A stretch of 63,449 bases of DNA from NCBI GenBank assembly GCA_021781995.1, contig JAJXVT010000004.1, positions 1-63,449 on the forward strand, written 5' to 3'. The stretch is from a bacterium. Its GTDB lineage: Bacteria > Chlamydiota > Chlamydiia > Chlamydiales > SM23-39. The notes under the pieces are model-generated. The model was not told the DNA's origin and made no database searches. It saw only the letters and a list, made by a program, of their open reading frames with translations. The translations under genes and the position numbers were made by a program. This document shows, one piece after another, positions 59,715-62,306 of the stretch (position 1 is the first letter of the stretch; the number at the start of each line of letters is the position of its first letter).

Positions 59715-60167
59715 ATGAAAATTTCAAGTCCAGCCTTTCAAAACAATGGCTCGATCCCCCCCAAATACACCTGCCAAGGAAAAAATGTCAGCCCTCCGCT
59801 AGAGTTTTACGACATTCCACAAGGAGCTAAATCTCTTGCGCTGATTATGGAAGACCCCGATGTTCCTTGCTGCGTACGCGCCGACTGCATGTACGACCAT
59901 TGGATCATCTTCAACATCCCCCCCTCGACTCGTCAATTGGCCGAGCACACAACGCCTCCTGGCATACAAGGAAGCAATACTTCAGGGCAAAACCGCTACA
60001 CCGGCCCTTGCCCTCCGGATCGCGAGCACCGCTATTTTTTCAAGCTCTACGCCCTCGACTGCACGCTGAATTTAACAACAGGCGCGTCTAAAACCGATCT
60101 TGAATCTGCGATGCAAGGACACATTCTTGCACAAGCACAACTCATTGGACGCTACGAAAAGAGTTAA
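59715..60167 (+). CDS. PEBP/YbhB-YbcL family (Raf-kinase-inhibitor-like) protein
   Basis: KYTCQGKNVSPPLEF, SLALIMEDPD, DHWIIFNIP, YTGPCPPDREHRYFFKLYALD. Confidence 0.85.
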   Translation: MKISSPAFQNNGSIPPKYTCQGKNVSPPLEFYDIPQGAKSLALIMEDPDVPCCVRADCMYDHWIIFNIPPSTRQLAEHTTPPGIQGSNTSGQNRYTGPCPPDREHRYFFKLYALDCTLNLTTGASKTDLESAMQGHILAQAQLIGRYEKS

Positions 60168-60170
60168 TCT

Positions 60171-62306
60171 ATGGAAAGCTATCTCTCTCACGGACCTTGC
60201 GATCTGGTCACTCCAGACGGCAAAATCATCGCTATTTCGCCCATGCGCTCGGGTCAAAGAATGGCGACAATATCCATTGAGCACATAGCTGAAAATTTTG
60301 TCGGCTATCAGGTGGCTCCCGACCGCATTTTCTTCAACATCAAGAGCACTCTTGCGCAACTAGGTCTCAATGGCACTGCCAAGCAATACGAATGGAACCG
60401 CCCTACGCGTTCAGTGCGCGTTCAAGTAGAGCTAACAGCCATCGGCCCGTTTGCCCACGCAATTCTCGATTTATTAACAGAAAGCGCCTACATTGGAAAA
60501 CTCTTTGCCGCCGATGAATCCAGACGCGTACGCAATCCCGATTACCTCATGCGCATGTTCGGCCGCTGCGACCGTCAGGGGCGCCCTTTGCTGCTTCTGG
60601 GGGGCCTAGAAGGAAGCGGTGATCTCATTCTCGAAAAAAGCGAAGGCAGGACCGTAGCATTCATCGCCCTAAAACAAGGAACCCTTACCTACGATCATTC
60701 AATCTACGGATTTTTACCAACCCTAGCTAAAGCCCTTACCAAAAATCTATCCGGCACCCGTGATCTTCTCCATCTGCATCACATTTTGCAAACTGATGCT
60801 ACGCGCGTTGCAGACAAGCGCAACATCCTTCTTGTGCGCACTGCGCCGCTGCATATCCGCACAGTGTACGCACGGGTAATCGACTCACTATTGCCCAAAG
60901 GCTACTGTCACACCTCTGCTTCCGTTTTACAACCCGACACCCATGCCTCCGGCGATATATACGAGTTATTTGGCAAATCAGATCAAGTACTAGATGCAAT
61001 TCCCTTAGAGTTTTACACCCTTGAACCCCACCGCGAACACGTCTTTTTTGCCGATCGCGATCAACTCATAGCAAGCCTGGAACAACCAAAATCGCTATTC
61101 GACGCTTTTGCGACAGCACCGCAATCAGACCATCATCTCGCCTCCATTTTTGTCGTCAAAGGGACGCAGATGAAAAATCTTTGCGAAAAAGATTGGATCG
61201 TCCGAGATGTGCGCAAACACGATTTTCCAGGGCTTTCCCACCCTTTGCGCCAAGCACTCATCGTTGAAAAGTACATCGAACAGCAACCGCAATACCCCTT
61301 TTTGCAAGCCATGGAAACAGGTCTCATCACATCGCAAGGAGTTTTACTTTCACGCCACTTTCCTACGCCATTGCTCAAAAGAATGCTCTTATCCGATCGC
61401 GTTACCCGATGCTTAAAGGGAATATACTTCCAATCCCCTTCCTGCACATACGGCGATTATTTTTCCAATGAAGACAGAGCAACCCTGATCGATTTAGCCA
61501 AATTTGGCATCCCTGTTTATTGGGTCGATAAAATCTCAAATCAAATTCTGCAATACGTGCTGCGCCCCGAAAAAGAAAGCGGCATGTTTGTGCCGCTAAA
61601 CCTCATTGAAGATTTCCGTAAATCAACCGTTTTTGGCGTCTATGGATCCAACCTTTTAGAAGGCGATTTCGAACACGAATTATACGCCCTTTTACAAGGG
61701 GTTCTCGCTATGCGCAACCAAGTGAATCATCCATTGCTTTCAAAAAACACCCCTATTGCTCTGCTGACTGGCGGAGGTCCCGGCGCTATGGAAGTTGGCA
61801 ATCGCGTCGCGCGTAAACTCAATATCATTTCTTGCGGCAACATTGTTGACTTTAGACTCAAAGACTCAAGTGTCGTTCGAGAACAACAAGCCAACGCCTA
61901 CATCGACGCCAAAATGACCTACCGCCTCGATCGTCTCGTAGAACGGCAGTCTGAATTTTTTCTCGACATTCCCATTTTTTTGCCGGGAGGAATGGGCATG
62001 GATTTTGAATATGCCCTCGAAGAAGTTCGCAGAAAAACAGGCAGCGCGCCTGCAACCCCTTGTTTGTTGTTTGGAAGCGTTGATTATTGGAGCCGCAAAG
62101 TCAGTTCTCGATTTCAACTCAATCTAGAAACCGGTACGATCCAAGGATCGGAGTGGGTTTCTAACTGTTTTTACTGCATCCAAACAGCAGAGCAGGGACT
62201 TTCTATTTTAAAGAAATTCTTTGATAGCAAGCTACCGATCGGCAAAAAAGGCCCTACATATAATGCAGGTTTTTTTACTGAGCAGGCAACAGACGCAATG
62301 TCATGA
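60171..62306 (+). CDS. 711-aa fusion protein: unknown ~480-aa N-terminal region plus a divergent LOG/PpnN-type (TIGR00730-like) Rossmann domain
   Basis: C-terminal LLTGGGPGAMEVGNRVA ... RLDRLVERQSEF ... IFLPGGMGMDFEYALE corresponds to the LOG motifs GGGxGxM and PGGxGTxxE (Thr replaced by Met). Starts 3 nt after the PEBP stop. Confidence 0.65.
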   Translation: MESYLSHGPCDLVTPDGKIIAISPMRSGQRMATISIEHIAENFVGYQVAPDRIFFNIKSTLAQLGLNGTAKQYEWNRPTRSVRVQVELTAIGPFAHAILDLLTESAYIGKLFAADESRRVRNPDYLMRMFGRCDRQGRPLLLLGGLEGSGDLILEKSEGRTVAFIALKQGTLTYDHSIYGFLPTLAKALTKNLSGTRDLLHLHHILQTDATRVADKRNILLVRTAPLHIRTVYARVIDSLLPKGYCHTSASVLQPDTHASGDIYELFGKSDQVLDAIPLEFYTLEPHREHVFFADRDQLIASLEQPKSLFDAFATAPQSDHHLASIFVVKGTQMKNLCEKDWIVRDVRKHDFPGLSHPLRQALIVEKYIEQQPQYPFLQAMETGLITSQGVLLSRHFPTPLLKRMLLSDRVTRCLKGIYFQSPSCTYGDYFSNEDRATLIDLAKFGIPVYWVDKISNQILQYVLRPEKESGMFVPLNLIEDFRKSTVFGVYGSNLLEGDFEHELYALLQGVLAMRNQVNHPLLSKNTPIALLTGGGPGAMEVGNRVARKLNIISCGNIVDFRLKDSSVVREQQANAYIDAKMTYRLDRLVERQSEFFLDIPIFLPGGMGMDFEYALEEVRRKTGSAPATPCLLFGSVDYWSRKVSSRFQLNLETGTIQGSEWVSNCFYCIQTAEQGLSILKKFFDSKLPIGKKGPTYNAGFFTEQATDAMS

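Follow-up and report, generated by a model that had tools for sequence, protein, structure and literature searches.

The 63,449-nucleotide (nt) contig JAJXVT010000004.1 (assembly GCA_021781995.1; Chlamydiales, lineage SM23-39), referred to here as the window, comes from the mine-drainage metagenome of an environmental chlamydia and is an ordinary piece of chromosome. On its forward strand it carries a PEBP gene of the YbhB/YbcL type that encodes 150 amino acids (aa) (59715-60167, +), followed by a gene for a 711-aa multidomain protein (60171-62306, +), which is the subject of this analysis. The PEBP stop codon, TAA, occupies positions 60165-60167 and is followed by TCT and then by the ATG of the 711-aa open reading frame (ORF) at 60171, leaving a gap of exactly 3 nt. 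These gene calls agree with an earlier reading of the sequence (the original prediction), in which the 711-aa protein was described as an unfamiliar N-terminal region fused to a divergent LOG/PpnN-type domain, and the gene pair as a possible nucleotide-derived signal or salvage module.

With 1,774 homologous clusters at E≤1e-3, the closest 120 of which are all full-length and 67-81% identical, the 711-aa ORF is no chance ORF. A scan of one genome per species confirmed at least 225 loci, and 80 of these were retrieved for locus comparisons; these 80 species-level genome loci are distinct from the 80-sequence alignment of the whole family that is also used below. The loci cover Parachlamydiaceae, Waddliaceae, Simkaniaceae, Rhabdochlamydiaceae, Anoxychlamydiales and others, and two records bear Verrucomicrobia-type labels. 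A profile search of 1.84 billion cluster representatives gave 246 matches, about 16 of them full-length chlamydial clusters. In the C. psittaci/C. abortus group, a protein annotated in RefSeq as "LOG family protein" (P0126) is 43% identical over 693 aa, its full length, and the order of genes in a Chlamydia genome is HEAT (538 aa), HIT, MYG1, the 694-aa orthologue, DUF1207 and an aminotransferase. CT384 has 539 aa, and CT387, a "hypothetical" protein of 691 aa, appears on a 2006 list of Chlamydiales signature proteins, with a 263-aa protein as its best match outside the group (PMC1403754). Because the C. psittaci/C. abortus gene order and the lengths of CT384 and CT387 agree, the 711-aa gene is identified as the CT387 orthologue. 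Judged from its sequence, the 711-aa protein is a member of a phylum-wide core family present in essentially all chlamydiae and known as CT387 in Chlamydia trachomatis.

The architecture had been thought undescribed. It belongs instead to a phylum-wide family whose C. psittaci and C. abortus members RefSeq labels "LOG family protein" and whose C. trachomatis member, CT387, has been listed among signature proteins since 2006, although its function is uncharacterised. In the literature that we searched, CT387 appears only in lists: as a signature protein, for a transposon inserted upstream of its gene, and among "potential T3SS effectors" of the type III secretion system. No functional study of it was found.

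The LOG domain and its relatives

The C-terminal domain of the 711-aa protein (aa 486-700; 61626-62270, +) is a LOG domain, with a Rossmann fold of the type-II-like kind. A phmmer search of the PDB retrieved the LOGs 9us2, 5zi9 and 5wq3 at E values of 2e-6 to 6e-5, and Foldseek on an AlphaFold2 (AF2) model of the full-length protein (mean predicted local distance difference test score, pLDDT, 72) aligned about 215 columns with each of the type-II LOGs 5zi9, 5wq3, 1wek and 9us2 (E 1e-5 to 1e-4; template modelling (TM) scores, on the target, of 0.5-0.64). Together with hhalign, these matches bear out the assignment that had been made from the motifs GGGPGAM and PGGMGMDFE. Family models give a marginal result: the score against the Pfam LOG model PF03641 is 13.8 bits for the full 711-aa protein and 16.8 bits for its C-terminal 231 aa, against a gathering score of 27, and the protein has no match in NCBIfam, where TIGR00730 was the model of interest; a close relative (P0081) has a precomputed PF03641 match.

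Immediately ahead of the LOG domain, and always found there, is a small alpha/beta domain that we call D3 (aa 389-485; 61335-61625, +; pLDDT about 70-87). D3 and LOG also occur together as stand-alone proteins of 292-364 aa, among which P0234, P0240 and P0262 match aa 393-694 of the window protein. By this pattern of sequence matches, D3 plus LOG is a module of its own.

The residues expected of a LOG active site are conserved across the family. In the 80-sequence family alignment, G534, G536 and M540 of the GGGPGAM nucleotide-binding loop (aa 534-540; 61770-61790, +) and G606, G607, G609 and E613 of the PGGMGMDFE segment (aa 605-613; 61983-62009, +), which corresponds to LOG PGGxGTxxE, are each present in 80 of 80 sequences, and R592 (61944-61946, +), aligned to the "ERK" of LOGs, is present in 79. 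In CgLOGII, whose motif reads 170-PGGFGTLDE-178, the side chain of Thr175 binds phosphate, and Arg155 and Glu178 are catalytic (PMC5379747). Arg592 and Glu613 are the counterparts of Arg155 and Glu178, and Met610 stands in the place of the Thr. Met610 is aligned directly with this Thr because divergent chlamydial members read GGiGTDFE; an hhalign alignment that placed a 5-aa insertion in the motif (PGGxG-[MDFEY]-TLEE) was dropped on the same ground.

The statement that the canonical Thr is a Met holds for the window protein but does not extend to the family. Position 610 is T in 52, M in 25, S in 2 and V in 1 of the 80-sequence family set, and T in 62 and M in 14 of the 80 species loci, as against M in 107, T in 12 and V in 1 of the 120 closest homologues. 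By these counts, the Thr-to-Met change is a trait of the window's clade, not of the family. The C. psittaci/C. abortus protein, which like CT387 shares family and gene order with the window protein, belongs to a group of divergent chlamydial clusters whose consensus keeps the Thr. The type-II LOGs (CgLOGII, 5wq3; TtLOGII, 1wek; S. coelicolor, 5zi9; N. meningitidis, 9us2) are the closest matches of aa 486-700 in both structure and sequence. Compared with them, the window protein has the same Rossmann fold, GGGxGxM loop and catalytic Arg and Glu, but differs in three respects: the known enzymes are about 200-260 aa long, whereas here about 485 further residues precede the LOG domain in a protein of 711 aa; their phosphate-binding Thr is a Met in the window's clade; and the window protein lies under the Pfam cut-off.

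A sister family was found outside the chlamydiae. Its proteins are about 650-666 aa long (about 655 aa), and the search of cluster representatives had matched them only over approximately aa 390-650. When the chlamydial and sister profiles were compared by hhalign, they aligned over 602 columns spanning aa 13-684 (probability 100, E 5.5e-45); homology over the whole length implies that the architecture is older than the chlamydiae. Sister-family members score 31-45 bits against PF03641, above the gathering score, and carry the canonical GGGPGAM and GGVGTLEE motifs, and D3 is conserved in them too. Those with taxonomic labels come from Myxococcota, Latescibacterota/Bacteroidales and Leptospirales metagenome-assembled genomes. 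Against the PDB, the sister profile matched the type-II LOG 5wq3 at E 6.6e-17 and PpnN chains only at E about 1.

These data bear on two other views of the C-terminal domain. One is that it is a non-catalytic nucleotide sensor of the SLOG style, the protein being a regulator or scaffold in which the N-terminal domains act as effector or as another binding module. The score below the Pfam LOG threshold, the exchange of the phosphate-binding Thr for Met in the window's clade, the poor model around the motif and weak LDcluster4 (SLOG) co-matches in sister-family members would all suit such a role. However, the catalytic Arg and Glu and all motif Gly residues are kept in 79-80 of 80 sequences across a large evolutionary distance, the canonical Thr is retained by the sister family and by most chlamydial species (62 of 80), and there is neither a defence-system match in PADLOC nor a defence-like context. 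We regard a purely sensory LOG domain as unlikely. The related suggestion of a link to SLOG conflict systems finds no footing here, as neither the 711-aa protein nor PEBP has a PADLOC match and the synteny is conserved and of a housekeeping type.

The other view is that the protein is an ordinary homologue of PpnN (YgdH), the (p)ppGpp-regulated nucleotide 5'-monophosphate nucleosidase. The LOG core does align to that of E. coli PpnN (hhalign, window protein 528-679 to PpnN 178-328, probability 94%), and Foldseek matched the V. cholerae PpnN-like structure 2pmb at E 5e-3. As in PpnN (6gfl), a LOG core is built into a larger protein whose extra domains could bind a regulatory nucleotide. The hhalign match to E. 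coli PpnN is, however, limited to this core: the PpnN flanking domains DUF4478 and DUF3412 are absent from the window protein at E≤10, hhalign found nothing in common between either aa 1-485 or D3 and the PpnN flanks, and all extra domains of the 711-aa protein are N-terminal. The sister profile scores E about 1 against PpnN and 1e-17 against type-II LOGs. The missing flanking domains refute membership of the PpnN family, and we give this view hardly any weight. Both observations that the original prediction had named as fatal to it, lack of a LOG fold and presence of the PpnN N-terminal domain, thus turned out the other way.

The N-terminal region

The first approximately 480 aa had been said to match nothing recognisable, and searches of Pfam, NCBIfam and PDB sequences with the N-terminal 480 aa indeed gave no match; it was profile comparison that later linked its first domain to dCTP deaminase (Dcd) and dUTPase. 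For this comparison, a Dcd/dUTPase profile of 14 sequences was assembled from E. coli Dcd, M. tuberculosis Dcd-Dut, nine phage and archaeal-virus enzymes and three enterobacterial ones. Protein searches with the E. coli and M. tuberculosis Dcd sequences had returned only sequences that were 65-99% identical, nearly all at least 82%, and two scans of viral contigs for Dcd gave 3-4 close relatives; the diversity of the profile was taken from phage and archaeal-virus records.

The first domain, D1 (aa 13-118; 60207-60524, +), is modelled by AF2 with pLDDT 85-96. When a family profile (80 sequences, aa 1-130) was aligned by hhalign to the Dcd profile, aa 29-114 matched E. coli Dcd 89-161 with a probability of 94%, E 1.4e-7 and a score of 47.7, as compared with a mean of 11.7 and a maximum of 20.5 in a column-shuffled null (n=120). 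Because the score lies far above the shuffled null, D1 is assigned to the dUTPase superfamily. On profile evidence it is homologous to the dCTP deaminase/dUTPase core, of which it represents part of the fold only. D1 contains a motif-II-like element, K/R58-S59-x-L-A-Q/R63-L-G65, and a motif-IV-like element, I-G109-K/R110-L-F112; the conserved strings F-N-x-K/R-S-x-L-A-Q/R-L-G and I-G-K/R-L-F resemble Dcd GRSSLARLG and IGALSF. D1 thus shares with Dcd (1xs1) and Dcd-Dut (2qlp, 2qxx) the RSSLARLG phosphate-binding motif and the IGxLxF strand. Unlike these enzymes, the 711-aa protein has a head that is fused to a LOG domain and in which no single domain holds the complete dUTPase motif set (Ser/Arg of motif II, Asp/Glu of motif III, and motif IV): D1 has only the II- and IV-like elements, and H247, P255 and E265 lie in the domain that follows.

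That domain, D2 (aa 119-296; 60525-61058, +), is beta-rich and is a candidate for a second, complete dUTPase-superfamily domain. Against a narrow Dcd profile, its hhalign score was 23.4, the null maximum being 21.4. A greedy, weak alignment made aa 119-296 collinear with Dcd 2-174; in it, the family-wide residues H247, A250, P255 and E265 fall opposite H121, A124, P129 and the catalytic E138 of Dcd. Foldseek with the full model matched 2qlp_F at E 1.9e-3 (probability 0.99, 156 columns). A second AF2 run, on the N-terminal part (aa 1-300, mixed alignment), gave a D2 of low pLDDT, less confident than that of the full-length model (mean pLDDT 68); Foldseek with this N-terminal model gave no significant match, with Dcd chains at E 0.085-0.29 over up to 207 columns. 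Among the top matches in BFVD were the herpesvirus dUTPase-related proteins B82, B83, B84, GP82, GP83, UL31, T31 and G10, at weak values (E 2e-3 to 0.1, probability 0.1-0.57, very large root-mean-square deviation). The tandem, monomeric dUTPases of herpesviruses, in which two barrels make one site, offer an analogy with the head of the 711-aa protein, although the matches are weak and homology is not demonstrated. An internal duplication relating D1 to D2 was undetectable by profile comparison with a shuffled null. The evidence on D2 is weak and mixed, and it may be a second dUTPase-like domain. Across the family, the conserved residues of the head are K/R58, S59, G65, G109, K/R110, F112, H247, A250, P255 and E265.

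D2 also contains the segment KGYCHTSASVL...SGDIYELFG, in which a faint resemblance to permuted papain-like (YiiX/NlpC-type) folds had been seen. That hint was not borne out. Position 246 is Cys in just 1 of 120 close homologues and His in most, so that the Cys is peculiar to the window; Pfam and Foldseek gave no match to such a fold, and the columns of the N-terminal 300 aa that are invariant across both families include no Cys. The region around Cys246 shows instead a weak similarity to motif III of dCTP deaminase.

Between D2 and D3 is a segment, aa 297-388 (61059-61334, +), that is almost invariant in chlamydiae (VKGTQ, DFPGLSHP and EKYIE.QP are examples) and absent or unalignable in the sister family, as seen in a comparison of group consensus sequences. 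It is modelled with pLDDT of 34-51 and could be a chlamydia-specific interaction or regulatory segment.

Gene order and the PEBP gene

Conserved neighbours of the 711-aa gene were identified by tblastn of the window genes against the 80 loci. MYG1 was found at 61 loci, DUF1207 at 60, HIT at 58 and HEAT at 55. In the window, the HEAT-repeat, HIT (HinT-like) and MYG1/UPF0160 genes form a block at 55512-59647 (-) that is divergent from the 711-aa gene phylum-wide and corresponds to CT384-CT386, and DUF1207 is a conserved convergent neighbour. As chlamydial synteny is strong in general, we give little weight to the proximity of the HIT phosphoramidase and MYG1 genes.

The PEBP gene has no comparable standing. 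Its product is a clear family member (PF01161, E 3e-42; TIGR00481, YbhB/YbcL family, 130 bits), and an AAGGAG ribosome-binding site lies 5 nt ahead of the gene. Scans for promoters and terminators in the window gave nothing exceeding shuffled expectation, and there is no RNA support, the sequence being present only in four DNA runs from a mine-drainage metagenome. The two genes are probably co-transcribed. PEBP adjoins the orthologue of the 711-aa gene, however, in only 12 of the 80 loci, all from closer relatives at 57-74% identity, and the Chlamydiaceae CT387 loci, unlike the window, have no PEBP gene upstream. From this distribution, PEBP is a clade-specific insertion between MYG1 and the 711-aa gene, not a conserved partner.

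A dedicated two-gene module for nucleotide signalling or salvage, in which PEBP would bind a ligand or product of the fusion protein, has nevertheless some points in its favour. The genes are on the same strand with a 3-nt gap, PEBP has a good ribosome-binding site of its own, and upstream PEBP recurs in about 11 related species at gaps of 7-57 nt to the LOG-fusion gene. PEBP adjacency is moreover confined to loci that lack the motif Thr (0 of 62 Thr-type loci). Yet PEBP is not adjacent in 68 of 80 loci, Chlamydiaceae included, one of the 12 PEBP loci has the gene downstream on the opposite strand, and the association with Thr loss is equally explained by shared ancestry, as all such loci belong to one clade with identities of 66-74%. 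We consider a dedicated module quite unlikely and take the pairing to be accidental to this clade or, at most, locally adaptive.

Several non-chlamydial relatives have neighbours of another kind. In 4 of 5 contexts of P0199-like relatives (L081-L087), the LOG-fusion gene is followed by a gene of the uracil-DNA glycosylase (UDG) superfamily (PF03167), either at once or with a single unknown gene between them. Next comes, in 4 of 4, an unknown gene of 330-370 aa and then, in 3 of those, an acyl-CoA dehydrogenase gene; the neighbourhood may be an operon with a uracil/pyrimidine theme. At loci of the sister-family member P0254, a cytidine deaminase gene is divergently adjacent (L109), and a gene of the dCMP/cytidine-deaminase fold lies three genes downstream of the LOG-fusion gene (L108 and L109).

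Further genes of the window complete the picture of the locus. The HIT protein (58440-58835, -) has a PADLOC match to ThsC (HIT family, E 1.7e-8); because the housekeeping synteny is conserved, the match most likely reflects the HIT fold in general and is no sign of a Thoeris-like system. Counted from its first TTG, the HIT ORF shares 61 nt with the end of MYG1, and the Pfam match begins at residue 23; the true start is probably further inside the listed ORF. Downstream of the 711-aa gene, a 214-aa Pro/Ser/Ala-rich ORF (62275-62919, -) overlaps its final 32 nt and has no Pfam or PADLOC match. In C. psittaci and C. abortus, no such ORF separates the orthologue from the DUF1207 gene, which comes next, and the 214-aa ORF may be a lineage-specific gene or spurious. 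The DUF1207 gene itself (62953-63449, -) is cut by the end of the window, and only profile positions 190-342 are present.

Upstream of the PEBP gene, 57339-58379 (+) encodes an outer-membrane protein of 346 aa that belongs to the Legionella_OMP family (PF05150); its N-terminus is rich in Cys (CSCGCP...C), after the manner of cysteine-rich porins in chlamydiae. Two Pmp-like proteins of about 755 aa with C-terminal autotransporter beta-domains are encoded in opposite orientations at 21618-23876 (-) and 25677-27953 (+). A core cluster at 41349-53749 contains rpoC, rpoB and tuf between tRNA-Thr(GGT) and tRNA-Trp(CCA), genes of a V-type ATPase are found at about 31640-37227, and a pyruvate kinase gene is also present. 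The rpoC/rpoB, tuf and tRNA genes and the V-type ATPase genes indicate a chromosomal, non-mobile context.

A further proposal is that the 711-aa protein is secreted as a type III effector and, once in the host cell, acts on nucleotides there or produces a cytokinin-like base. CT_387 has been placed among "potential T3SS effectors" (PMC11070183), and LOG enzymes of other pathogens make cytokinins (PMC5379747, PMC8234997). Against an effector, a full-length homologous family exists in other phyla, its members lie in ordinary chromosomal contexts, and the N-terminus of the chlamydial protein is strongly conserved. Secretion signals are not usually so conserved in sequence. The literature searched contained no secretion data. 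An effector role seems to us improbable.

Proposed function and implications

We propose, with confidence slightly better than even, that the 711-aa CT387 orthologue is a cytoplasmic multidomain nucleotide-processing enzyme, a nucleoside monophosphate phosphoribohydrolase that is fed or controlled by a head binding pyrimidine (deoxy)nucleoside triphosphates ((d)NTPs). The LOG domain would hydrolyse the N-glycosidic bond of a nucleoside 5'-monophosphate to release the base and (deoxy)ribose 5-phosphate. In the head, D1 and the probable dUTPase-like D2 would form one composite (d)NTP site, by analogy with the herpesvirus tandem dUTPases, D1 supplying the residues of motifs II and IV and D2 the motif-III-like His, Pro and Glu. 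In trimeric dUTPases, the subunit that gives a site its motifs II and IV is not the one that gives it motif III, and a tandem pair could therefore build one site. Such a head might make the monophosphate substrate, for example by converting dCTP or dUTP to dUMP and pyrophosphate; alternatively, it might sense the pyrimidine (d)NTP pool and regulate the LOG domain allosterically, much as the flanks of PpnN do on binding (p)ppGpp. A pyrimidine theme is hinted at by the UDG and cytidine/dCMP deaminase genes near non-chlamydial relatives. PEBP would be co-transcribed in the window's clade and dispensable for the conserved function.

A number of observations weigh against this proposal. On the LOG side, the window protein falls below the Pfam gathering score and lacks the phosphate-binding Thr, and the AF2 model is of low confidence near the catalytic loop (aa 586-596 and 611-625). 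On the side of the head, D1 is without the motif-III Asp and Glu and amounts to about half of the Dcd fold, and the dUTPase/DCD models PF00692 and PF22769 are absent at E≤10 from the window protein and from 12 sister-family members. The hhalign score of D2 against the diverse Dcd profile was 18.6, within the null (maximum 21.1), and Foldseek on the N-terminal model gave nothing better than E 0.04. The associations with pyrimidine-related neighbours come from few, probably related genomes. No enzymatic data for any member of the family were found in the literature searched, and the identity of the substrate is pure inference.

A more specific form of the proposal is that the protein is a fused two-step enzyme of pyrimidine disposal or salvage, whose head, with a composite site formed by two degenerate barrels, would convert dCTP or dUTP (or CTP or UTP) to the monophosphate and whose LOG domain would convert this to uracil and (deoxy)ribose 5-phosphate. 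We consider this unlikely in so definite a form, and we know of no organism in which a two-step pyrimidine route through a composite dUTPase-like site and a LOG domain has been described. Were it true, PEBP and the Thr-to-Met change would be signs that substrate or regulation had shifted in the window's clade.

The existence of the gene has long been known; what is new is the domain assignment and the sister family, and others may already have noted the dUTPase-like domain. The pairing with PEBP is not the interesting feature of the locus. Chlamydiae depend on host nucleotides, and nucleotide handling is central to their biology. Conservation of CT387-type proteins extends from pathogens of humans and animals to lineages of the environment, and the domain map (a dUTPase/Dcd-like head, D3 and LOG) turns a "conserved hypothetical" into an enzyme hypothesis that can be tested. 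R592 and E613 in the LOG domain and S59, K58, H247 and E265 in the head are candidate catalytic residues, and the non-chlamydial sister family, with its canonical motif, is likely to be easier to express.

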